From the NCBI GenBank assembly GCA_963749495.1, contig CAVVMW010000005.1:288001-352000 (forward strand): a stretch of 64,000 nucleotides of DNA, read 5' to 3'. The notes beneath the pieces were generated by a model. It worked only from the letters and a program-made list of their open reading frames with translations, ran no database searches and was not told the DNA's origin. The DNA is from an uncultured bacterium. GTDB taxonomy: Bacteria > Verrucomicrobiota > Verrucomicrobiia > Limisphaerales > UBA8199. Positions 32,278-43,154 of the stretch are shown here, one piece after another (within the stretch, counting starts at the first letter, position 1; each line of letters starts with the position of its first letter). Made by a program: the position numbers and the translations under genes.

Positions 32278-33837
32278 TCATTGACGCCGCGTGCCTGCCC
32301 CACCAAGTGGTGCGGTATTGGAACCGCCTTGCAGATCGCGATCCAGGGCCGCCCCGTCGAACGGAACAACGATGATCTTACTGCCGTGGGTATCATTGCC
32401 CCGTTCCTGTTCCTTGGGAACATCAATGACCGCGAAAGTAAAATGGGTAACATGGCCATTTTGGAGGAGCACGCCGGGACGTTCCATTTTCTCCCAATGA
32501 TTGACGGTCCCATCGGTGTACCGCACGAAGTCCTTCGTCGGATCGTAAGCCAGTCCTCTGAACGTCCAGTTCTTGATGCCGTCGGGTGAGGTCAGGTGGT
32601 AGGCCTTGCGGCCGCTCCAGCTATTGACCACGATGTGGCACAGGTTCCCGCTATACCACACCACCGGATCTTCCAGATTGCGCAGTGGAAGGCCGGGAAT
32701 CTGCGGATAAATGCTCGGTCCCTGGACCGTGTACGGCCCCAGGATGCCGGCCTTGCTGAGCAAGATGGCGCCGGACCGCGGCACGATCATAAAGTCGCCA
32801 TCCGGACGAACCATCATGCTCACGTTCGACATTCGCCCCAGGCGGCTGAACTCGTTTGTGGCGACCTTGATCGAACCGAGAAACTCCCAAGGGCCATCCA
32901 GCGACTCAGAGACAAAAGGGCTCTGGATGGGCATTGGCAGGAAATAGTCGATCAATGTCTTCTCGGCGGCGGGAGCAGGCCGCTGGCCTGGCAGGCCCGG
33001 CGCGCGGGCGATCACCTGGAGTTCCGGCTTGCGCACGCCGAACTGGTCCATCGGGAAGTTCACGAAGCCCAGGGCGAGGGCGGGGGAACCGTCCCTCACC
33101 CGGTAATCGCCCTTGGCGGGGTCCGCGAATTGCGCGTCGGCCACGAGGGAATGTTCGTCCCGGCCGCTCTGGCGTTGCAGGTTGATGGCAGGGGCGTTGG
33201 TCGCGCCGGTCCGGTGCAGAAGGTTGAAGTCCATTTCCTTGCCGGTGATCCGCCAGGTAAAGTCGCCCCAGAGCGCGGGGTGCATGGCGTGATAATAGCC
33301 GCCGGTCGGATCGGCCCAACGCGCGGCGCGATTCGTCGAGATCGCATCCGCAGCGAAGCCGTCGAAATACTGCGCCTTCGGATCGAAGTTCGGATAGCGC
33401 GCCAGGATTTGCCGCTCGCCGTTGACGAAGACCTCCTCGGTCCGCAAGTCCCCCGGCACCTTCGCCTGTAAAATGCCGCCTTGGTAAGGACGCCAGTCGA
33501 GCTTGTCCAGCCTAACGCCGCCGCTGATGATGGGCCGCTCGTTTTTGTAGGCTTGGAAAATGACCGGGGCCTTCTCCGTGCCGGAATCCTGGGCGGTGAA
33601 CACGAGTGGTGCGGACAAATAGTAAATGCCGCCCCGCAGGAACACCGTTCCCGGTTGTTGCCGCACGGCCTGCTGAGCCCGTTGGGGGCTGGCGAAGGGT
33701 CTTTCCAGCGTGCCGGGGTTCGCGTCGTCGCCAGTGGGTGCCACGAAGTATGGCCGCCCGAACGCTGTAAAGGCCATCAGGCCAAGCGACCCGCTCAGCC
33801 AGAGCAACCGGCGGAGGATCGCGATCTTTGGTTTCAT
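32278..33837 (-). pseudogene. Chimera: beta-helix protein fragments plus beta-propeller glycosidase C-terminus
   Basis: YFVAPTGDDANPGT, ARYPN, ADAQFADP then LEDPVVW, MERPGV. Confidence 0.6.
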
Positions 33838-34039
33838 GTGGAAGGCTATTTCCGCTGAAAAACTGAGTAGCCATAGATCCCAAAGGCTCTCATGTAAACT
33901 CCGTCCCGCAAGCTCCGGCGCCAGGTCTGCCACTCGTGTGCGGTGCCCGGCGATTCGTAGAACACGGTCTTGATTCCCGCCTTCTCCAGCGCATCGCGGT
34001 AGTTCTTGACACTGTCGCACATCCGCTTTTGCTCCGCTG

Positions 34040-34336
34040 AACGGTAGGCAGGCGGATCTGGCCGCGAACGGTCCGCACCGCTTCGTCCTGGTCACGAATC
34101 GGCAGCGTGATCCACTCCTCCCAGGTCACCGGGCGGACCTTGGAAGTGCGGAGTGCAGAGTGCGGAGTGCGGAATGAATCGAACTCCAGATCGGGTAGAT
34201 CTTCGCGCTCGATTTCCAGGCCGGTGGCCACGTTGGTGGCCATCATGCAGAACGCCTCTTGAGGCGTGCGCACGTTGATGGCCTGCCAGTTGCGGTTCAG
34301 CACCAGCACGGTCGCTTTTGTCAATGTACTGCTCAT
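34040..34336 (-). pseudogene. HNH endonuclease (McrA-like), N-terminal half, last gene of the tRNA operon
   Basis: VLVLNRNWQAINV...WEEWITLP...IRLPTV; HNH core absent; heptamer insertion in frame. Confidence 0.7.
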
Positions 34337-34415
34337 AAAAAGGGGTCGAGGGTCGAGTGACGAGGACCGGAAGCGCGCTGCGGCCGAGCTTCCCTCGTGG
34401 CCCTTCATCTGCCCA

Positions 34416-34433
34416 AGGTGTTTGTTCTTTGTT
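34416..34433. repeat. 18-bp inverted repeat, trailer arm
   Basis: AGGTGTTTGTTCTTTGTT, exact reverse complement of 41150-41167. Confidence 0.9.
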
Positions 34434-34483
34434 GAGGGCCTTAGCCTTTAGCCTTCAGCCTTCAGCCTTTGGCCTTTGAAGCA

Positions 34484-34558
34484 TGGCTGCCTCGCCTGGA
34501 ATTGCACCAGGTCCTTCGGTTTCAGAGACCGACGCGCTCCTGATTACACCACGAGGCC
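34484..34558 (-). tRNA. tRNA-Gln(CTG)
   Basis: TCGGT-CTCTGAA-ACCGA arm, encoded CCA. Confidence 0.85.
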
Positions 34559-34627
34559 CGCCGTCGCGCTTTGCGCTAAGGCGCGGCAAGCGATTGGCCC
34601 GCCGAGCCGTAGCCGGCAGGCGAAGGC

Positions 34628-34701
34628 TGGTCGCTCGGGAAGGTCCTGCCCCTCCGATTTCTGGGTGTAGGCCAGACGTGATGCTATTTCACCACCGAGC
34701 C
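34628..34701 (-). tRNA. tRNA-Val(TAC)
   Basis: TCTGG-CCTACAC-CCAGA; C33; CCA. Confidence 0.75.
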
Positions 34702-34811
34702 TTTCGAATGCGGAACTCGGAATGCGGAGTGCGGAGTGCCAAACGAGAACGAAGGCTGCTTGTGCGCGCGCCCCCATTCCGCACTCTGCATTCCCCACTC
34801 CGCACTGGGAA

Positions 34812-34885
34812 TGGCTGCCTCGCTTGGATTCGCACCAAGATCATCGGGGTCAAAGCCCGGCATGCTGCCGTTACACCACGAGGCA
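34812..34885 (-). tRNA. tRNA-Gln(TTG)
   Basis: TGCCTCG acceptor, CTTTGAC loop, CCA. Confidence 0.85.
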
Positions 34886-34993
34886 AGGAATCGGCCTGCC
34901 AAGCCGTAGCCCGGCACGTCACAAATGCTCGCCTCCGCACTAGCGTGCTTCGGCGCAGCAGCCCTCGCCACCCGTCGCGCGTGTGGCGAAGGC

Positions 34994-35070
34994 TGGTGGA
35001 GCCGGAGGTAGTTGCAACCTCACCAAACCCGATTAAAAGTCGGGTGCCGGTCTGCTGTGGCTTCGGATCC
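34994..35070 (-). tRNA. tRNA-Lys(TTT)
   Basis: CCCGA-CTTTTAA-TCGGG; CCA. Confidence 0.8.
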
Positions 35071-35077
35071 AGGAAAA

Positions 35078-35162
35078 TGGTGGGCGAGAGAGGATTTGCA
35101 CCTCCAAGGCTCACAGACTCTCGATCTGTGGGGTCTGCTAATTCCCTCTGAACCACTCGCCC
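35078..35162 (-). tRNA. tRNA-Leu(GAG), atypical fold
   Basis: ACAGA-TCGAGAG-TCTGT; short variable region; C33; CCA. Confidence 0.75.
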
Positions 35163-35171
35163 AAAGAAAAG

Positions 35172-35247
35172 TGGTGCTCCCGGCCGGAATCTCACCGGCA
35201 ACCTCAGCCTTCGGAGGGCCGCGCTCTGGTAATTGAGCTACAGGAGC
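35172..35247 (-). tRNA. tRNA-Arg(CCG)
   Basis: CGGCC-CTCCGAA-GGCTG; CCA. Confidence 0.85.
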
Positions 35248-35343
35248 AGTCCTAATGTGGAATTCGGAATGCGGAGTGCGGAATAAGAATGTGCACAGGG
35301 CTCTGCACACTCCGCATTCCGCACTCTACACTCACCACTTGAA

Positions 35344-35414
35344 GGGGTCTCCTGCCGGTGCTGCCCCGGCCTGGCTTGTTTACAAAACGAGCCTGCAGGC
35401 TGCCGCAAGGAGAC
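35344..35414 (-). tRNA. tRNA-Thr(TGT)-like, small D arm, no CCA
   Basis: GTCTCCT/AGGAGAC acceptor, TTTGTAA loop. Confidence 0.6.
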
Positions 35415-35452
35415 GAGATGGCCTGCCGAGCCGTAGCGCTCGGCGCGAAGGT

Positions 35453-35618
35453 TGGTCGCAATCCCCAGTGCTGCCCTGGGCACGGCTGGCTTATGAAACC
35501 GGCCTGAGCGCTAGCCCTTTCAAGTGCAAAGTGGAGAATGCAAAGTGCGGAATGCACCGGGCGCGGGCGTAGCGATGATAATTCTGCACTCCGAATTCCG
35601 CATTCTGCACTGATGGCG
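35453..35618 (-). tRNA. tRNA-Met/Ile2(CAT), interrupted by a heptamer hairpin
   Basis: TTCATAA loop, CCA; candidate 5' acceptor strand CGCCATC (35612-35618) lies beyond a roughly 90-nt hairpin. Confidence 0.55.
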
Positions 35619-35652
35619 GGTGGGTCTGCTCTTCCCCGTGAACCACGCGCCG
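35619..35652 (-). pseudogene. 5' half of a fifth atypical tRNA-Leu
   Basis: CGGCGCG-TGGTTCAC-GGG-GAAGAGCAGA-CCC matches the other Leu genes. Confidence 0.65.
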
Positions 35653-35658
35653 AGAAGA

Positions 35659-35769
35659 TGGCGTCCCTGACCGGCTTCGCTCCCGCCTTCGCTGGAAAGC
35701 TACGGCGGGGCAGGCCGGTGATCTCCTGCATGAGAGGCAGGCATTTTGTCTGGACTACACCACAGGGAC
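35659..35769 (-). tRNA. tRNA-Glu(CTC) with 33-nt insertion in the T arm
   Basis: CCTGC-CTCTCAT-GCAGG; insert 35682-35714; CCA. Confidence 0.8.
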
Positions 35770-35775
35770 TGAAAA

Positions 35776-35852
35776 TGGTGAGGGCAGGAGGCTTCGCACC
35801 CCCAACCTGATGCATGTGACGCATCCGCTCTGGCTGGCTGAGCTATGCCCTC
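35776..35852 (-). tRNA. tRNA-Val(CAC)
   Basis: GATGC-GTCACAT-GCATC; CCA. Confidence 0.85.
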
Positions 35853-35888
35853 AAAATGGCTCGCCGAGACGTAGCTCCGAGCGAAGGC

Positions 35889-35964
35889 TGGTGGGGGACG
35901 AAGAGTGCTGCCCTCTTTGCCTCTCGGATGTCAGACGAGCGCTCTCCTGGTGAGCTACGTCCCC
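35889..35964 (-). tRNA. tRNA-Val(GAC)
   Basis: CTGACAT loop, GCTC/GAGC D stem; CCA. Confidence 0.75.
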
Positions 35965-35970
35965 AACAAA

Positions 35971-36020
35971 TGGAGCGGGTGGACGGAGTCGCACCGTCGA
36001 CTCGGCCTTGGCACGGCCCT
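35971..36020 (-). pseudogene. tRNA-Gly(GCC), 3' two-thirds only
   Basis: GGCC-GTGCCAA-GGCC, T arm, CACCCGC-T-CCA; 5' part missing next to the GIY-YIG stop. Confidence 0.7.
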
Positions 36021-36030
36021 TGGAGATAAA

Positions 36031-36297
36031 CTAGCTCCCCAGGCTCTCCGCTCCGCCCCAGAAGTGTCGTTTTGCGAAGGCATGGCCGGACCCGCTCTTC
36101 AGGTATTTCTCGAAGTGCTGGGCCTGTTCAAGGGACTCGAACGCAACGTACACCTTGAGCGTCCAAGGTATGAACTTGGACGTGTGCGGACATTTACCGG
36201 CGTTATGGTCTGCCACTCGTTGACGGAGGTCTGCCGTATGACCGATGTACCTCTGGTCGCGGTGGCTCAAGCTCTGGATGACGTATGTGTAAAACAT
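36031..36297 (-). CDS. Stand-alone GIY-YIG nuclease
   Basis: YTYVIQS...YIGHT.DL..RV..HNAG...FEKYLKSGSG. Confidence 0.9.
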   Translation of the reverse strand: MFYTYVIQSLSHRDQRYIGHTADLRQRVADHNAGKCPHTSKFIPWTLKVYVAFESLEQAQHFEKYLKSGSGHAFAKRHFWGGAESLGS

Positions 36298-36680
36298 ATT
36301 GCGGCCTGCCATCCATAGCTTGGAACCCGTTCCGTGGAAAGTCCTCCTTCGCCGAGCCTACGGAGGACATCCTCCGTTTGGCCCCCTCGCCTGGCTCGGG
36401 TTCCGAGCGGAGGATGGTGTCCCCAGCCGATTAAATCCAGAACGAAGAATGCAAAGTGCAGAACGCCCCACTCCCTCGCCATTGTCGAAAACCCAAATCC
36501 ATTTTGCATTCTTCATTCTGAATTCTTCATTTCAAAGGGCGGCCTGGATTGCGGGTCCGGTTCCGCTCGCTGGGAAAGGAGGCCGTTTCCTGCTGCTTGT
36601 GCCGCCAGCGCAGGAACTTCTGAAACCGGGCAAAATTCGTTCGGAGCGAATTTTGATAGGTTTTGTCCTCGAAGAACAAA

Positions 36681-36768
36681 TGGCGGAATGCCGTGGACTT
36701 GCACCACTTGCCTGGAGGCACGCACTCGTTAGCACCGAGGCCCGGTTCGCTTGCCCGGTTGGCATTCC
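36681..36768 (-). tRNA. tRNA-Ser(GCT), 8/4 fold
   Basis: 8-bp acceptor GGAATGCC/GGCATTCC, 4-bp T stem, long variable arm, G73-CCA. Confidence 0.8.
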
Positions 36769-36808
36769 AGAAATGGCCTGCCGAGCCGAAGCTCGACAGA
36801 GCGAAGGC

Positions 36809-36892
36809 TGGTCGGCGTGGGGAGACTTGCGCTCCCAAGGCTGTTCGGGTTTGAGCCGAACCGGTCTGCTATTCCCGGTAAACCACACGCCG
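36809..36892 (-). tRNA. tRNA-Leu(CAA), atypical fold
   Basis: TTCGG-CTCAAAC-CCGAA; A73-CCA. Confidence 0.8.
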
Positions 36893-36924
36893 GCCCGCCG
36901 AGCCGTGGCCCGGGGAGCGAAGGT

Positions 36925-37010
36925 TGGTCGGCGCCCCGGGACTTGCACCCGGAAGGCTCAGCGATTTTAAGTCGCTGGGGTCTGCTGATTCCCGCTGAAG
37001 CCAGGCGCCG
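36925..37010 (-). tRNA. tRNA-Leu(TAA), atypical fold
   Basis: AGCGA-CTTAAAA-TCGCT; A73-CCA. Confidence 0.8.
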
Positions 37011-37123
37011 AGAAAATGGCCTGCCGGGTCGGAGTTCGGAGCGAGGGTCGGATGCCCGCCTACGCCTCAAAGGCAGGCTTCGGCGAGACAGTCTTCGTTC
37101 TCCGCTGCGCTCCGAACGAAGAC

Positions 37124-37207
37124 TGGTGGGCATGGAGGGACTTGCACCCCCAAGGCTGCCAGATTCTGAATCTGGACCCTCTGCTATTCGGGTTGAACCA
37201 CATGCCC
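37124..37207 (-). tRNA. tRNA-Leu(CAG), atypical fold
   Basis: CCAGA-TTCAGAA-TCTGG; A73-CCA. Confidence 0.8.
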
Positions 37208-37216
37208 AGTTGAAAT

Positions 37217-37292
37217 TGGTGCTCCCGGCAGGACTCTCACCTGCAACCGGCGGTTCGAAGCCGCCCGCTCTGATATTTTGAGCTACGGGAGC
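37217..37292 (-). tRNA. tRNA-Arg(TCG)
   Basis: GGCGG-CTTCGAA-CCGCC; CCA. Confidence 0.85.
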
Positions 37293-37378
37293 CCTCCAAA
37301 TGCAGAGTGCGGGATGCAGAGTGCAGAATGACGCCCTTCCGTTCTGCGTCCCCCATTTTGGATTATTCAGTTGAAAAT

Positions 37379-37825
37379 TGGGGCCGGTGGGGAGACTCGC
37401 ACTCCCGTGGTAACTGTTCAGGTGTTGGACCAGTGCTGGCTTCGACGCCAGCGCCGGGCCCAGCCAAGCCGTTGTCCCGGAGGGACAACCCGAGAATAGC
37501 CCGGCGCTTCAGCGCCGGGTCCGACGCCCTAAAAACCCCGCGTCCCGACAGGGACGCCTGAGGCTCAGCACCGCAAGAGGCCAGCCGATTCAGCCGTCCC
37601 TCCGGGACGGGCGGGAGATTAGACCGCTTTCCCCGGCGCTGAAGCGCCGGGCTATTTTCGGGCTGTCCCTTCGGGACAACGACGGCCCTCGAACCAGAGC
37701 GCGTCCCGAGAGGCCCCGGCGGCGATGTGGCAACCCATGTGCCGAGACCTGAACAGTTACCTCCCGTGGGACGAATTGCCCGGCAGTTTACGAAACTGCT
37801 GCTGTCGCTGCTGAGCCACGCCGGC
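37379..37825 (-). tRNA. tRNA-Thr(CGT) with long variable arm, split by a MITE
   Basis: GCAGT-TTCGTAA-ACTGC; removing 37410-37768 restores the gene. Confidence 0.75.
37410..37760. mobile_element. 351-bp MITE-like element carrying a REP-type long palindrome
   Basis: TIRs GTAACTGTTCAGGT/ACCTGAACAGTTAC; direct repeat CTCCCGTG at 37402-37409 and 37761-37768. Confidence 0.9.
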
Positions 37826-37933
37826 CTCCGAAATGCGGAATGCAGAGTGCGGAGTGCGGGATTGCACAGAGCCGTCACAACAACGCTTGTGCTCCTCATT
37901 CCGCACTCAGCACTCCGAACTCCGCACTGAAAA

Positions 37934-38007
37934 TGGTGGGTCGCCACGGTGCTGCCCCGTGCTCTGCGGTTTAAGAGACCGCTGCATCGCTGCAATGCTT
38001 GCAACCC
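37934..38007 (-). tRNA. tRNA-Lys(CTT)
   Basis: GCGGT-CTCTTAA-ACCGC; CCA. Confidence 0.85.
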
Positions 38008-38010
38008 AAC

Positions 38011-38085
38011 CGCGACACGAAGGCGGAGTTGAACCGCCGCAGCCAGATCTGTGAAGTCCTGGCCGGCACCGGTGTTCGCGTCGCG
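38011..38085 (-). ncRNA. tRNA-like RNA (11-bp closing stem, canonical T arm, no CCA)
   Basis: CGCGACGCGAA/TTCGTGTCGCG; GGCGG-TTCAACT-CCGCC. Confidence 0.55.
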
Positions 38086-38090
38086 TGAAA

Positions 38091-38165
38091 TGGAATCCCG
38101 TGTGAGAGTCGCACTCACCTGCGCGGTTTTGCAGACCGCTGCCTGGGCTGCTCGGCCAACGGGAC
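38091..38165 (-). tRNA. tRNA-Cys(GCA)
   Basis: GCGGT-CTGCAAA-ACCGC; U73-CCA. Confidence 0.85.
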
Positions 38166-38273
38166 ATCTGAATGCGGAGTGCGGAGTGCGGAGTGCAGAG
38201 TGCAGAGTGCGCAATGTCTGCGGTGCTGCCCCTCAGGCATTCCGCATTCTGCACTCCGCACTCAGCATTTGGT

Positions 38274-38700
38274 TCACGCTGCCCGCACAAAGTCCGAGAT
38301 GACGGCTGGAACGCTGGTGTCGAAACCAACCACGTCCAGCATCCCGCGGTCGTTCGGGTCGGCCAGGGTGAAGCCACTTAAATGAAGAGTTAAGAATGCA
38401 GAATGAAGAACGGAGGACGCCCTCAGCCGCCGTTGGTCTTGATTCCTCATTGTGCATTCTTCATTCTGCATTCATGTGGGCCCAGACCATCGGCAGCGAG
38501 CAATCCGTGCCGCCCATCGGGATCGCACGGACCTTCTCGATGACGCTTTCCAGGCGCATTCGGGGCGAGAGGGCGACCCGGGTAATGCCTGACTCACCGC
38601 CACCCCGCTGGCCGCCGTGACCGCTGGCGGCTGCGCTGAAGGCGATGATCTCGCACTCGGGGTCGGTTGCCGCCGTCACCAGGGCCATGGCGATGGACAA
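38274..38700 (-). pseudogene. rsr: Ro60/TROVE protein, C-terminal vWA remnant
   Basis: AMALVTAAT...MGGTDCSLPMVWA and GFTLADPNDRGMLDVVGFD; split by a heptamer hairpin, N-terminus absent. Confidence 0.8.
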
Positions 38701-38701
38701 G

Positions 38702-38821
38702 TGGCGCCGTAGGGTGGGGATCTCCTTACGGGAATCGAACCCGTCCGGAACTTGAATCCGGGCGCTCTCCCATGGCGAGCGTCCTCCCCGTGCTGGAGGA
38801 TGACCTGCGGACTTCGGCCCA
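38702..38821 (-). ncRNA. tRNA-like RNA on a long stalk (Y-RNA candidate)
   Basis: D-like GCTC..GAGC, hairpin CCGGA/TCCGG, ACGGG-TTCGATT-CCCGT; ends pair; abuts the Ro60 remnant. Confidence 0.55.
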
Positions 38822-38828
38822 TGCGAAT

Positions 38829-38936
38829 TGGTCAGGAAGCCGGGATTCGCACCCGGACCGTCCGCTTCACAGGCGGAGATGCTGTCCACCCTCCGCAGTG
38901 CTGCTACGGAGGACGGGCTGTTACACCACAATCCTG
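38829..38936 (-). tRNA. tRNA-His(GTG) with 33-nt insertion in the D loop
   Basis: TCCGC-CTGTGAA-GCGGA; insert 38884-38916; A73. Confidence 0.75.
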
Positions 38937-38941
38937 GAAAA

Positions 38942-39019
38942 TGGTGCCCCCAGGTGGACTCGCACCACGATCCTCCTGCTTCGCGGGCAGGCGTGCACAT
39001 TCTCTTACACCTTGGGGGC
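38942..39019 (-). tRNA. tRNA-Arg(GCG)
   Basis: CCTGC-CCGCGAA-GCAGG; C33; CCA. Confidence 0.8.
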
Positions 39020-39112
39020 CTTGGAAGTGCGGATTTCGGAGTGCGGAGTGCGAAATGGCTGACGATTCCGGTGCGCCTCATTCCGCATTCCGCATTCTGC
39101 ACTCTGCACTTG

Positions 39113-39191
39113 GAGCGTCCGTGGCCGGACTTGCACCGGCTATGCCCGGCTTGAAGGGCCGGCTGCTCGAGCCTGCTTTGCATTCACGGAC
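39113..39191 (-). tRNA. tRNA-Glu(TTC)
   Basis: CCGGC-CCTTCAA-GCCGG; C33; G73. Confidence 0.75.
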
Positions 39192-39323
39192 AAATTGTTC
39201 ACCGTGGAAGGCTGGAACCACGGGGATTTCTGAACTCAGAATGGAGAATGAAGAGTGCAGAATGTCGAACCCTGCTGGCTCATTCTGCACTTTGCATTCC
39301 CCACTCTGCATTTGAGAGGCGCG

Positions 39324-40467
39324 CTAACGCCGGAGCGCGCGCGTCTTGTAGGTGAGGAGCGGCCGGAAGGTGGCGATAACCGAGATGAGTCCGGCGTCCG
39401 CCAGGTCCTGGACCACGTCCTCGATGCTCTTGTAGGCGGCTGGGGCCTCTTCGTAGAGCAACTCGCGCGGCTCGCAGATGACTTGGCCCCCCAGCGGCGT
39501 TTGGGTCAACTGCTGCCGGCCAAACCGTTCGCGCATGCGCAGGCGGCTCTCACTCCGGGCCCGACCTGCGGCCGGCACCGTGGGCCAAAGACCAGGCGTG
39601 GCTGACGCCATCTCCAATGGGCTTCACGAGGTAACTGAGCGACCCGCGGGAGCCAGGGATCATCACCGGCTCCCGTTCGGCTGCCACGGCACCCTTCCGA
39701 TGCACCCAGACCGCTTCGCCAGGGCTGCCCCTCACCCCGTCCCTCTCCCCATCGGATGGGGAGAGGGTGGCCGCAAGGCCGGGTGAGGGGACGCGAGCGA
39801 TGCTGTTGTGGCAGCCGTCCCAGAGGCACTCGGCCTCCGCTCCCAGCGCCTCGACGAATCGTCGAGCGATGAGCGCCCGGTTTGTCTTGGCCCACCTCAG
39901 GGCCAAGTCATGGTCGCGGAGATAGCCCGCCGCAGCAAACGACTCGGGATCGGAGCCTTCGGCCTGATGCTCTTCCGCGTACGCCCGCAGGACCGATTCG
40001 CCCAGACCGCGCGAGCCGCTGTGGACCAGAACCACCAGTTGCTGTTTGCCCAGGCCCAACCGCCTGAATGCTGCTGCGTCCAAGACGGCCTCGACCTTCT
40101 GCAGTTCGGCGAAGTGATTGGCGCCGCCGATGGTCCCCAGCGCTTCATCGAACTCCGTGGATTCAAGCTCCGCTACGGCGAGAACCTCGCCCACATCGCC
40201 TTCCCACGGATGCTCCAGGTCAAAGCGAAGGTCGGCCCACCCGCCTACGCGCTCCGCGCTCCGGCGCGGCAGGTCTGTCTTGAACAGGGCCGTGCCGCAA
40301 CCGATGTCGCCGCCGATGAGGTGGGGATAAATGACGCCCTTGGTGACGAGGGCGGCGCCCACCGGGCTGCCCTTGCCCGGGTGCAGGTCCGGGAAACCGA
40401 CCGCCAGGCGTACACTTTCGAGTCGTGCCGCCGCATAAAGCTGGCGAACCGCTTCGCCTTCGATCAT
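39324..40467 (-). pseudogene. rtcB: RtcB-family RNA ligase (PrfH-coupled RtcB2-like), frameshifted near 39560
   Basis: PDLHPGKG, GDIGCG, NHFAE, HSGSRG, HN, HRKGA, HGAGR, EEAPAAYK, RPLLTYK. Confidence 0.85.
39729..39790. repeat. CCCTCACCCC..CCCTCTCCC palindromic element inserted in frame in rtcB
   Basis: Nested hairpin encoding PSPGLAATLSPSDGERDGVRG between the HN and HRKG motifs. Confidence 0.75.
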
Positions 40468-40585
40468 CTGCCTGCCCTCCGCAAAATGTAGAATGAAGAA
40501 TGCAGAATGAAGAATGCCCCGGATCACGCACCGCAGGGCGCGGACGGAGATTCTGCATTCTCCATTCTGCACTCTGCATTTGAAC

Positions 40586-40692
40586 TGGCTGCCAGGGTTG
40601 GACTCGCACCCGCCGTCGCTCGGAGCTATGGCGGGGCAGGCCAACACCTAACGGCTTAACAGGCCGCCGTGCTGCTTTGACACAACCTGGCA
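40586..40692 (-). tRNA. tRNA-Asn(GTT) with 32-nt insertion in the T arm
   Basis: GCGGC-CTGTTAA-GCCGT; insert 40609-40640; G73-CCA. Confidence 0.8.
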
Positions 40693-40694
40693 AT

Positions 40695-40750
40695 TGGCGC
40701 TGCCGGCAGGAGTTGCACCCGCATGAGTTCGTTTAGAAGACGAATGCCCC
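40695..40750 (-). pseudogene. tRNA-Arg(TCT), 5' end replaced by a heptamer hairpin
   Basis: TTCGT-CTTCTAA-ACGAA, T arm, CCA. Confidence 0.7.
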
Positions 40751-40859
40751 TTCCAAGTGCAGAGTGAAGAGTGCAGAGTGCGGAATGCCGCGGTCGGGAG
40801 CGAGTGGCTCCAGCCTCTGGCCATTCTGCATTCCGCACTCCGCACTCCGCATTCAAGAA

Positions 40860-40948
40860 TGGTGGGAGGTGCTGGTAACGCTCCAGTCGTCGCTTCCGAC
40901 AGTTGTTTTTGACGCCGGTTTTACGGACCGGCAGTCGGAACACCTCCC
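40860..40948 (-). tRNA. tRNA-Tyr(GTA)-like, D-armless 8/4 fold
   Basis: GGGAGGTG/CACCTCCC, GCCGGT-CCGTAAA-ACCGGC, A73-CCA. Confidence 0.7.
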
Positions 40949-41065
40949 GAGATTGGCTTGCCGCGCCGTAGCTCGAAGCCGCGCGAATGCACGCGGGCGG
41001 TACGGCCCGCCTTCGCTTCGCTACGGCGCGGCAGCCTCGCTCTCAGACTGGCTTCGAGCGGAGGC

Positions 41066-41138
41066 TGGTAGCGGGGGTGGGAGTCGCGCCCACGAAGGCT
41101 GAGGTTATGGGCCTCGCCTGAATCTCATTCTCCCCGCA
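41066..41138 (-). tRNA. tRNA-Met(CAT), initiator-like, minimal D arm
   Basis: 1:72 mismatch, GCGGGG/CCCCGC, CCCATAA loop, CCA. Confidence 0.7.
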
Positions 41139-41149
41139 GTGAAATGGCG

Positions 41150-41167
41150 AACAAAGAACAAACACCT
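41150..41167. repeat. 18-bp inverted repeat, leader arm (boxA-like on the minus strand)
   Basis: AACAAAGAACAAACACCT; complementary to 34416-34433. Confidence 0.9.
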
Positions 41168-41448
41168 CTTGCTACCTTGCGGTACCAACCCACGGTTTCA
41201 CGGTGGTTCTTTCGGTGTTTGGGGGCACACCTCCTGCGAAGCCCATTTGAATGTAGAATGAAGAGTGTAGAGTGAAGAATGCCGCACGAGCGGCTCCGGC
41301 TCTTTCGACGGGGCGCCCATTCTGCGCTCTGCATTCTGCGCTCTGCATTCGATTATGGTGACATCATCAAGACGTCGGTTTCTTTTCGTTCACAGTGCTT
41401 TGCCTTTCGTTGTCGAGTTTTGCTTCTTTCAGTGCTGCACGGGTAAAC

Positions 41449-41481
41449 AAAAAACCCTGCTTCCATTCCGGTAAGCAGGGT
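41449..41481 (-). terminator. Intrinsic terminator in the tRNA-operon leader
   Basis: ACCCTGCTT-loop-AAGCAGGGT followed by TTTTTG. Confidence 0.85.
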
Positions 41482-41502
41482 GCAAAAAGTCTTTTGGTTC
41501 GG

Positions 41503-41673
41503 TTACCTGCTTACCTTCAATCTATCCAGATTGGCTTCGGGGTTTTGTCCACGATACGCCCTGGATAGGCCGAGGCTGAACCAATAGCCTCGGCTGGACC
41601 AGCTATGACGTGTCGCCTGCGCGACCGACGTCATCGGCCAAATCGAGACTAATATGTTCATGCAAGTTTTCAT
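41503..41673 (-). CDS. Putative leader peptide (56 aa, or 52 aa from the ATG at 41661)
   Basis: MKTCMNILVSIW...LDRLKVSR*; last codons overlap the antiterminator strand 41506-41515. Confidence 0.6.
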   Translation of the reverse strand: MKTCMNILVSIWPMTSVAQATRHSWSSRGYWFSLGLSRAYRGQNPEANLDRLKVSR

Positions 41674-41787
41674 CGAACTTGGTTCATACTTATCACATGT
41701 CCCTAATCTTGTCCACTTATATCTTTAGGGTATCCTATATCTTAAATTCAAATATCTGGATAGGTTGATACATCGCTCCCCTCCGGT

Positions 41788-43154
41788 TCACCGGAGTTTA
41801 AGCAATCGCACCTCAAGCGGCGCAAGGGTGAGCGGAGCGTCCACCGGCCTGCCGGTCAGGACATCCTGCACCGCCATTGGCCGGCCGTCGCGCATCAGGA
41901 CTGCCGTCACCGGCTCCTTTCGGTAGTTGCAGAGATTCACCACGGTCCCTTGGGCTGTTTCGGTGCTCCGCCATTCCACGCCCCAAGCGGGCTGCCGCTC
42001 GGCCTCGCGCAGCTCCAGCGTGGGACGCAGGTCCCATGCGGGAAGCTTCGCCAGGATTTGTTCGTGCAGCTTCCGGGACGAAGTGGAACCGTGCCGGAAC
42101 GGGAGCTTGTCGGTGGCTGAGAGCTCGGGCCGTCTTTCGTGCCCATACTCATCCCGGCCCAGCACGTCGTCGTCGCCGACCAGCACCACACGCCCCTTGA
42201 ACTGCCGCAGTCCCGCCAAGGCTGCACCAGCGAGATGGACAACGCCGGGCACAAAAACCAATGGCGCCTGCGGGACGGAACCTGTCTCTGGATGATGTTC
42301 ACACCGTAGTCCGGCCACTTCTCCATGTCCGAGACGACCTGGCTGAAGTGCCCATAGCCGGTGAAGAAAACCGGACGCTCCTGCGGGACGCCACCCGGCA
42401 GGCAGGCCGGAGCCACAAAAGAACTGCGCCTGATGACAGGGCGCTGGTCGCCGGTCCAACGTGGCACGGCAGGGAACTGCCGCTGCCCGGCCAGGGCCTC
42501 TTTGAGTTCGCCACCCAAGCGCGATGCCATTCGTTCCAGGTCGCCGACCTGCTCGAGGGAACGGCGGACTTCTCCGTGGCGGGCGTCTTCCTCCGCATAG
42601 CCGATGAAGTTCTCCAGCACGGTGGCCGTGACTGCGGGATACGAGGGGTCCTGTCCGCGCGATTTGACCGCCTGCAAGTCCGCTTTCAGCGCGGGCAGGC
42701 TCGCCTTCAGGGCGCCTAACCGCTGGAGCGCGTTGGCGGCGGAGAAGAACCCTACGGGCGCGCTGGCGGCAGTGCTTTCCTGGTTCGCCTCCTCCAGGCG
42801 CAGCGTCAGCGCGCATCGCGCATCGCTGGCGGCTGCGCTTTCCCCTTTGACCAGCACCCGCCACACGCCCGCGGCGAGGCTAATGGTCTGGCGGACCGGT
42901 TCCCAGGAGCCCCATCCCGCAGAAAAAGCCCCGGTCACCGCGCGCGGGTTGCTCAACGTGAAAGCGACGCTAAACGGCCCATCGCCCTGGACCACGGTTT
43001 GCGCCTCTTCGGCTTCCAGAAACACCTTGTGACCGGTCGCGCACGCAGCGTCAGTATTGCGCCGGTCCCATCGCCAACCGGCCGGGAGGCCGGCGGAAGC
43101 GACTCGCTCGAAGCCCGAATTGGGAAGCAGGTTAGGCCGGCACTCGTGCTTCAA
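41788..43154 (-). pseudogene. Fragments of a secreted glycoside-hydrolase-like protein
   Basis: NLLPNSGFE, PVFFTGYGHF, and C-terminal LTLAPLEVRLL in another frame. Confidence 0.5.

Follow-up and report, generated by a model that had tools for sequence, protein, structure and literature searches.

Hairpin repeats behind the CCA ends of tRNA-like genes in a Verrucomicrobiota genome are probably gene-less copies of a small GIY-YIG nuclease cassette

A dense array of tRNA and tRNA-like genes in the draft genome of an uncultured member of the Verrucomicrobiota (GCA_963749495.1, here G000; 11.4 Mb, 63% G+C, assembly 88% complete) carries short hairpin repeats, each of which starts at the very base that follows the CCA encoded by the gene in front of it. 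The question raised by this locus is what these repeats are and what holds them so exactly to the ends of tRNA-type genes. We analysed the 64,000-nucleotide (nt) stretch that contains the array, hereafter the window (G000, contig C5, positions 288001-352000), and compared it with the rest of G000, with related genomes and with other phyla. We argue that the repeats derive from a small insertion cassette encoding a GIY-YIG nuclease, of which they are copies without the gene and, in part, with internal deletions, and that this cassette, in many bacterial phyla, is lodged directly behind the CCA of tRNA and transfer-messenger RNA (tmRNA) genes, starting at the next base; we would put the probability of this reading at about 0.7.

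The array occupies the minus strand of the window between 34.4 and 41.2 kb and is one of six paralogous arrays in G000, the others lying on contigs C4, C7, C15, C21 and C25; together they are built of mosaic blocks which share 73-97% identity. ARAGORN calls five tRNAs in the array of the window and the Rfam tRNA model gives 16 matches (27-58 bits), while a tRNA-end test, which asks for an acceptor stem of at least 6 of 7 pairs and a T stem of 5 of 5 pairs before CCA, flags about two dozen units. Eight copies of the repeat were found here (Table 1), and all eight begin, on the minus strand, which is the strand of the tRNAs, at the base after an encoded CCA, as judged from both the sequence reading and the nhmmer coordinates. 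A preliminary description of this DNA had placed eight copies exactly at the CCA of tRNA genes, and the placement holds, with the amendment that the genes upstream are tRNA-like and not ordinary tRNA genes: ARAGORN called none of the eight, the Rfam tRNA model matched three (32.9-40.3 bits) and the other five were recognised by the stem test only. Behind the five tRNAs called by ARAGORN in the window no element was found. Six copies possess a terminal CCA of their own, and these are the same six (34595, 35419, 35857, 36774, 37017 and 40954) for which a second CCA had been described; the copies at 34893 and 36892 terminate in GGCC, followed by G. Five copies are short (32-35 nt) and consist of GCCTTCGC, a variable stem, a loop, in most cases C(UACG)G or C(UUCG)G, and then GGCRGGCCA, and three are long (101-112 nt). 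The long forms had been taken to contain nested copies, but they proved to be composites of three different hairpin modules. Copies in the arrays all share the orientation of the tRNAs, except for two reversed copies that lie inside tRNA-like genes.

These modules belong to a larger unit. The full cassette opens with a non-coding leader, ~110-125 nt long and composed of hairpins A, B and C, and continues with a gene for a single-domain GIY-YIG nuclease of ~90 residues. Hairpin A, a perfect stem directly 3' of the CCA, starts with GCCTTCGC, GTCTTCG or TCCTCCGC; hairpin B, the best conserved module, reads UGCCNCGCC-GWAG-small hairpin-GAAG-GCGGGC; hairpin C runs out in ...GCUACGGCUNGGCAAGCCA and the terminal CCA. 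Two module orders were seen, A-B-C-gene and A5'-C-A3'-B-gene. The A3' strand (GCGARGGC) pairs back to GCCTTCGC and was found, along with hairpin B and then a same-strand GIY-YIG gene, downstream of the short-form pattern in many of the loci retrieved by the scan described below. Compared with this unit, the long copies of the window are the whole leader without the gene, and the short copies are the first ~8 bases of the leader joined to hairpin C. The stem beside GCCTTCGC is complementary to A3' and also to the 5' side of hairpin C, and this dual complementarity offers a simple route from the long to the short form by deletion between repeats. The comparison with miniature inverted-repeat transposable elements goes as far as this: the long copies match the leader of gene-bearing cassettes and the short copies hold both leader ends, but the gene sits past the CCA end of the leader and the right end of the gene-bearing form is hence undefined. 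The preliminary description had not recognised the element as a leader, nor the GIY-YIG nuclease cassette, present in many phyla, to which it belongs. No Rfam family covers the element in the window, nor the full leaders of ten cassette loci.

One gene-bearing cassette stands in the window itself, its leader being of the TCCTCCGC subtype, and its nuclease gene was the only one of its kind found in a search of G000. The arrangement of this leader recurs in the genome G003, and behind tmRNA in G052 and G054, and the GTCTTCG subtype, represented in the window by the gene-less long copy at 37017, stands before GIY-YIG genes in relatives. The nuclease has no NCBIfam match; its best relative of solved structure is an SLX1 homolog (E 0.004). 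Right after the nuclease stop codon lies a 3' tRNA fragment (35971-36030, minus strand) which comprises the variable region, T arm, acceptor strand and CCA only. The same tRNA gene is intact in the C4 array, so the cassette has taken the place of a short spacer together with the 5' portion of the tRNA gene. The link between nuclease and tRNA end was also examined from the side of the nuclease, with 17 homologs of the window protein from elsewhere in the family. In 14 of the 17, a tRNA or tmRNA on the strand of the gene ends 77-271 nt upstream, the B motif lies between tRNA or tmRNA and gene in 14 of the 17, and at two further loci the tRNA 3' end was recognised by eye. Leaders of the TCCTCCGC subtype accompany nucleases that are 65-93% identical to the window protein, and nucleases of ~46-53% identity come with GTCTTCG or GCCTTCGC leaders, the exception being one GTCTTCG leader behind tmRNA (40%); at two loci the A stem is a different one (58% and 41%), and one locus lacks a leader. 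We regard this as a hint, and not a test, that leader subtype tracks nuclease similarity class, because related genomes share both traits.

A census with nhmmer and a covariance model (earlier loose regular expressions had given mostly noise) extended the placement rule to the whole of G000. There are 32 nhmmer matches at E<0.01, of which 20 stand behind a tRNA-like 3' end, 10 behind another copy head to tail and 2 in heptamer repeats; in terms of hosts, 27 of the 146 tRNA-like array units carry the element. The preceding triplet is CCA in 30 of the 32 copies and CCC in two, so that the CCA enrichment for which the preliminary description had proposed a genome-wide census is indeed present, and placement at tRNA-like CCA ends in G000 is far beyond chance. 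Seven units of 33-34 nt follow each other on C4, and another run has three; such head-to-tail runs fit a target that would be renewed by each copy. At six non-tRNA sites (in G000, G014 and G020), all of them between blocks of 7-nt tandem repeats, the element is preceded by CCA, CCC, CCG or CCT and still ends in CCA or GCGA, from which it follows that the terminal CCA belongs to the element and is not a target duplication. In the two heptamer-repeat copies of G000, deleting the element together with one CCA restores the 7-nt phase. A seventh copy without an upstream tRNA-like end (in G041) is preceded by TCC. The idea of a GG-targeted insertion that regenerates CCA thus survives in part: insertion is 3' of CCA and brings a new CCA, whereas the target is neither GG nor CCA as such but the end of a tRNA-type gene.

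If the element is an insertion, empty sites with the same boundaries should exist, and a search for them had been suggested along with the first description. Filled and empty sites with exact boundaries were seen both among the paralogous arrays and among congeneric species. Behind a tRNA ending in ...CCCGCTACCA there is a long copy in C5 and C15 and nothing in C25 and C4; in C25 the sequence ATCTCGGGGAGG... follows directly after this tRNA, and in C5 the same flank follows after the element. The tRNA-Cys gene lacks the element in the window but is followed by it in C4, C15 and G003, and two unlike copies stand in C21 where C4 has one. Similar observations come from Bradyrhizobium, the genus of one of the scan loci (L059), where a single orthologous tRNA locus was compared across 28 genomes: 14 have the element in various forms, 4 have a related CGCTTCGCC element and 10 are empty (one unpublished genome was left out of this set, and at one locus the tRNA end was not found). 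The flank TCCTGC... comes after the CCA of the tRNA in the empty loci L188 and L178, and after the CCA of the element in L167 and L176. Filled and empty sites which meet exactly at the CCA mean that the element is gained or lost as DNA. It may be noted that the related elements starting with CGCTTCGCC... form a second family, which occupies the same position behind the CCA of the same tRNA (L161, L163, L166 and L174).

Furthermore, the element is not confined to G000. With a covariance model of the short form, it was detected in 15 of the 44 further genomes examined from the family, and other families of the order had it in 1 genome of 16, these counts being lower bounds with 150 candidates scored per genome. 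Among the family loci retrieved, CCA stands before 26 of the 32 copies, and the tRNA-end test recognises a tRNA-like end for 19 of the 32. A scan for the exact pattern, with each prokaryote species represented by one genome, returned at least 120 matches in at least 119 loci; the matches listed come from Alphaproteobacteria, Verrucomicrobiota, Planctomycetota, Nitrospirae, Patescibacteria and others, and include Bradyrhizobium, Caulobacter, Sphingomonas, Opitutaceae, Lacunisphaera and Lentisphaeraceae. Among the matches listed, 117 have upstream DNA long enough for the tRNA-end test, and in 75 of these the element comes immediately after a tRNA-type end; these 75 show the C(TNCG)G loop in 66 cases, the A3' motif within 220 nt in 46 and a same-strand GIY-YIG homolog in the 400-nt flank in 14. 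Infernal placed the end of a tRNA (51-73 bits) or a tmRNA at the element in all ten loci checked, with tmRNA scores of 133.7 bits at L103 and of 45.3 bits, below the gathering score of 47, at L079. A scan of viral contigs gave five loci.

Whether the predicted hairpins are real was examined at the level of single copies and of the alignment. DNA folds of the short window copies have z values from -2.6 to +0.9, two of them at the level of shuffled sequences, and one long copy has z = -1.0, so the folding model gives moderate support to the individual hairpins. In stem A, compensating changes extend the A5'/A3' pairing (TCGC/GCGA, GCTT/AAGC, TTGC/GCAA and TGCT/AGCA), 6 of 41 distinct combinations are fully paired where 1000 shuffles gave 1.1 on average and never more than 5, and the subtypes themselves occur as matched pairs, GCCTTCG/CGAAGGC and GTCTTCG/CGAAGAC. 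Real pairing is supported by these compensating changes and subtype pairs. RNAalifold on 21 copies found a weak consensus of 9 pairs, none with changes on both sides, the variable stem being one that does not align. In the predicted folds the first C of the CCA is usually paired, CA alone is free and there is no discriminator base. A tRNA remnant or a minihelix, the model substrate of RNase P, was considered and rejected: the ends lack acceptor-stem pairing, a discriminator and a free 3' CCA. A Rho-independent terminator was rejected as well; TTTC or TTTT does follow the element in G000, but it also follows element-free tRNAs, and in other phyla the element is followed by GCC...

How such a cassette might move is suggested by the Ssn family of ~94-residue GIY-YIG enzymes, whose genes are flanked by oriented hairpin repeats. 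According to the published text available, these enzymes cut single-stranded DNA only, a few bases 5' of a hairpin, and the authors liken the unit of gene plus repeats to insertion sequences (PMC11893778; Nat Commun 2025). As far as that text goes, the likeness is twofold: here too a ~90-residue single-domain GIY-YIG protein is accompanied by oriented hairpin repeats which far outnumber the gene, and the position equivalent to the SsnA cut, a few bases 5' of the hairpin, would be the junction CCA|G (PMC11893778), which in our element is the foot of hairpin A or lies 6 nt before the short hairpin. By analogy, the nuclease would cut at the hairpin-CCA junction, and host repair or copying might then place the element. 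The end of the element, a hairpin with CCA, would re-create a site like the one used, which would explain tandem runs and stacking. The six arrays of G000 offer ~140 CCA ends, and gene conversion between arrays may have done much of the spreading in this genome. The differences from Ssn are that our element stands at tRNA and tmRNA CCA ends, the word 'tRNA' occurring 0 times in the text of that paper as available to us, and that the leader stands on one side of the gene only, as compared with the flanking repeats described there (PMC11893778). A second comparison is with the Seg type of homing endonuclease. Phage T4 SegB is encoded by a free-standing GIY-YIG homing endonuclease gene in a tRNA cluster; Seg enzymes have a DNA-binding domain and cut double-stranded empty alleles. 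A small GIY-YIG gene among tRNA genes, present in some relatives and absent from others, is common to both, but Seg genes are not known to come with a hairpin leader, with miniature copies that lack the gene or with a junction exactly at CCA. Within the limited set of literature searched, we found no report of a GIY-YIG cassette located at the CCA ends of tRNAs.

Several observations weigh against this proposal. In the assembly of G000, which is 88% complete, one nuclease gene stands against more than 30 copies; that nuclease comes with a TCCTCCGC leader, and most copies belong to the GCCTTCGC subtype. A nuclease alone cannot join DNA, and cleavage, excision and insertion are all steps that we infer by analogy. 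The short copies lack hairpin B and yet form tandem runs, and near-identical short forms occur in distant phyla; if B is the recognition site, short copies should be inert. The published Ssn repeat motif (SRM), as given in the available text of PMC11893778, has 0 matches in eight cassette loci and in window positions 33001-43000; genome-wide it has 88 matches in G000, none of them in the arrays examined. As for the cross-phylum scan, a rough calculation gives ~65 pattern matches expected by chance, and the matches were therefore filtered by the tRNA-type end; among the matches listed, 22 of the 42 that lack a tRNA-like end also lack the loop, and these 22 are probably chance. Finally, RNA folding in G000 favours the tRNA-sense strand for 18 of the 20 distinct copies, and G-U pairs number 24 on that strand as against 1 on the other; this bias would also fit a role as RNA.

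The preliminary description had offered a co-opted processing signal as its alternative, and such a role has been considered in its own right. A search for sequencing runs of this DNA gave 24 DNA runs, with small word shares, and no RNA run. The hairpin could be a host-selected RNA module of the tRNA precursor, a 3' trailer which marks or blocks CCA processing or protects the transcript, and which spread through its usefulness. The sense-strand bias speaks for it, as do the constant position on the tRNA strand, by which the element would be co-transcribed, and the C(UNCG)G-type loops, which are especially stable in RNA. We consider it improbable all the same, since the tRNA locus is empty in 10 of the 28 congeneric genomes and empty sites occur in the paralogous arrays, so that tRNAs do without the element. 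A near-identical element is found across phyla whereas tRNA flanks are not conserved, strand asymmetry is absent outside G000 (33 of 81 in the cross-phylum set), the five ARAGORN-called tRNAs of the window have no element, and the element runs on into a nuclease gene.

Mobility by other enzymes fares worse still. Most copies had been said to carry the GTAG tetramer known from repetitive extragenic palindromic (REP) elements, and on the plus strand GTAG is present in five of the eight window copies, as read by eye; the connection drawn from it to REP did not hold. The tetramer is the hairpin loop, being the reverse complement of the C(UACG)G type, other copies have GAAG or GCAG instead, UUCG, UGCG and GACG also occur as loops, and no conserved GTAG or GTGG tetranucleotide was found in the flanking guide position of REP. 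An element of REP or bacterial interspersed mosaic element (BIME) type, or a miniature derivative of IS200/IS605, moved 3' of a short target by a Y1 transposase (TnpA or a REP-associated tyrosine transposase, RAYT), would explain insertion 3' of a fixed trinucleotide on one strand with no obvious duplication, the hairpin ends, and the many non-autonomous copies per enzyme gene which REP/BIME-RAYT systems and the IS200/IS605 miniatures known as palindrome-associated transposable elements also have; moreover, G000 contains 24 Pfam Y1_Tnp matches. We nevertheless hold this very improbable. None of the 24 lies inside the tRNA arrays, and all 32 confident copies are in tRNA arrays or heptamer repeats and not scattered between genes, as the hundreds of extragenic copies of a REP system with its flanked RAYT gene would be. 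The constant protein neighbour across phyla is GIY-YIG, an enzyme of another class, and the target is the end of tRNA-type genes. Equally remote, in our judgement, is the reading that the hairpins are attC- or att-like sites of a site-specific recombinase which shuffles tRNA gene cassettes between arrays. The arrays are mosaic, with block boundaries often at CCA, and conserved ends around a variable centre recall attC; against this, most tRNA-like units have no element, no recombinase was seen in the array of the window, which is the array that the search covered, and tandem runs with nothing between the copies make no sense for cassette sites. A separate observation concerns another abundant hairpin repeat, ...TTTTCAGGCGTCGCTACGCGACGCGG..., on contig C1 (e.g. 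595033-595454 and 311220-311431) and other contigs of G000; because of the 24 Y1-transposase matches in the genome, this repeat may be its true REP/RAYT system.

Table 1. Copies of the element, the gene-bearing cassette and the host arrays. Positions are those of the window unless a contig is named; k, kilobases.
Feature	Position	Strand	Context
Short copy, 33 nt, GCCTTCGC...GGCGGGCCA	34595-34627	-	3' of CCA (34628-34630) of tRNA-like gene 34628-34701; nhmmer
Rfam tRNA match upstream of copy 34595	34631-34701	-	35.7 bits
Long copy, hairpins A+B+C	34893-34993	-	3' of CCA (34994-34996) of tRNA-like gene 34994-35070; terminates in GGCAGGCC, without final A; paralogous site in C4 holds a short copy instead
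Short copy, ACCTTCGC...GGCAGGCCA	35419-35452	-	3' of CCA of tRNA-like gene 35453-35528
Reversed copy inside tRNA-like gene 35659-35769	35685-35716	+	nhmmer E 0.031; Rfam tRNA match stretched to 108 nt
Short copy	35857-35888	-	3' of CCA of tRNA-like gene 35889-35965 (Rfam 35893-35964, 40.3 bits); followed by TTTT, then tRNA-Val 35776-35852
GIY-YIG nuclease gene, 88 codons	36031-36297	-	Pfam PF01541, E 4.4e-12, residues 6-74
Leader, TCCTCCGC subtype, hairpins A+B+C	36298-36414	-	Between CCA of tRNA remnant (36415-36417) and nuclease start codon
Short copy, C(UUCG)G loop	36774-36808	-	3' of CCA of tRNA-like gene 36809-36892; DNA fold z = -2.6; paralogous site in C7 empty
Degenerate short copy, ACCTTCGC...GGCGGGCC	36892-36924	-	3' of CCA of tRNA-like gene 36925-37010; without terminal CCA; adjoins next tRNA-like gene directly; fold at shuffle level
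Long copy, GTCTTCG subtype	37017-37123	-	3' of CCA of tRNA-like gene 37124-37207 (Rfam 37127-37207, 32.9 bits)
Hairpin A of copy 37017	37091-37123	-	
Hairpin B of copy 37017	37054-37090	-	
Linker and hairpin C of copy 37017	37017-37053	-	
Element-like reversed sequence GCCGTCGC...GGCAGGCCA inside tRNA-like gene	40612-40643	+	By-eye reading only, no model score
Long copy, terminates in GGCAAGCCA	40954-41065	-	3' of CCA (41066-41068) of tRNA-like gene 41066-41138; paralogous sites empty in C25 and C4, C25 with identical downstream flank
Array of the window	34484-41138	-	
Array on C4	C4:601.5-610.3k		
Array on C7	C7:31.7-37k		
Array on C15	C15:357-360k		
Array on C21	C21:703-711k		
Array on C25	C25:65.8-67.7k		

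The arrays that host the element are unusual in themselves. Each has ~20-45 tRNA and tRNA-like genes, all with an encoded CCA, and many of these genes have unusual T loops, for example GGTGCAAGTCC and GGGGCAGCACC; their Rfam scores of 27-58 bits compare with 60-79 bits for the scattered housekeeping tRNAs of the genome. Inverted pairs of 7-nt tandem repeats around spacers of 20-60 nt were noticed at ~17 sites between 34145 and 41350 of the window (for example at 38173-38269, 40485-40580 and 41252-41350), with units such as AGTGCGG and AATGAAG and their complements; they flank most tRNA units, and one block extends into the open reading frame 33890-34408. A gene for the RNA ligase RtcB lies inside the window array in two frames (39324-40647, minus strand) with a palindromic insert at ~39730-39790, and a fragment matching the vWA domain of Ro60 (38461-38700, minus strand) adjoins the split gene. 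RtcB-homologous segments are also present in the C4, C15 and C25 arrays; an RNA-repair gene set is embedded in tRNA-like arrays. Also, a tRNA-like gene of the window is split by an insertion of ~350 bp (37400-37770) with terminal inverted repeats GGTAACTGTTCAGGT... and a duplicated TCCCGTGG. It contains two inverted Acido-Lenti-1 RNA motifs, at 37473-37519 (minus strand, 44.7 bits) and 37632-37678 (plus strand, 38.3 bits), both above the gathering score, and the presence of two inverted copies inside an insertion bounded by terminal inverted repeats suggests that the Acido-Lenti-1 motif is part of a small transposable element.

Returning to the insertion cassette, an extension of it, which we offer as rather unlikely, is that the element exploits the tRNA system twice, by DNA mimicry of a tRNA gene end and as RNA that rides on tRNA transcription and end processing. 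The terminal hairpin with its CCA would imitate the end of a tRNA gene, so that insertion renews the landing site and the nuclease gene comes to lie behind the mimic. Enzymes of tRNA end processing would then cut both CCA junctions, one cut freeing the working tRNA and the other a nuclease mRNA that starts just before the ribosome-binding site. Were this so, a selfish element would owe its targeting as well as its expression to mimicry of the tRNA acceptor end. On the cassette reading itself, tRNAs that are essential tolerate having a stable hairpin attached at the CCA end, and some processing route must therefore remove it. For annotation, the trailers are neither terminators, REP elements nor parts of the tRNA, and they can cause tRNA calls to be lengthened or broken up; the two window genes with reversed copies are examples. 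In G000 the element is also a marker of the six large arrays with their unusual tRNA-like genes, and probably contributes to the reshuffling of these arrays. If the cassette reading is true, there exists a cross-phylum family of tiny mobile cassettes which target a single nucleotide position, the one that follows the CCA of tRNA and tmRNA genes, and leave gene-less hairpin copies there, and their small GIY-YIG enzymes would be candidate hairpin- and sequence-specific cutters with a new specificity.

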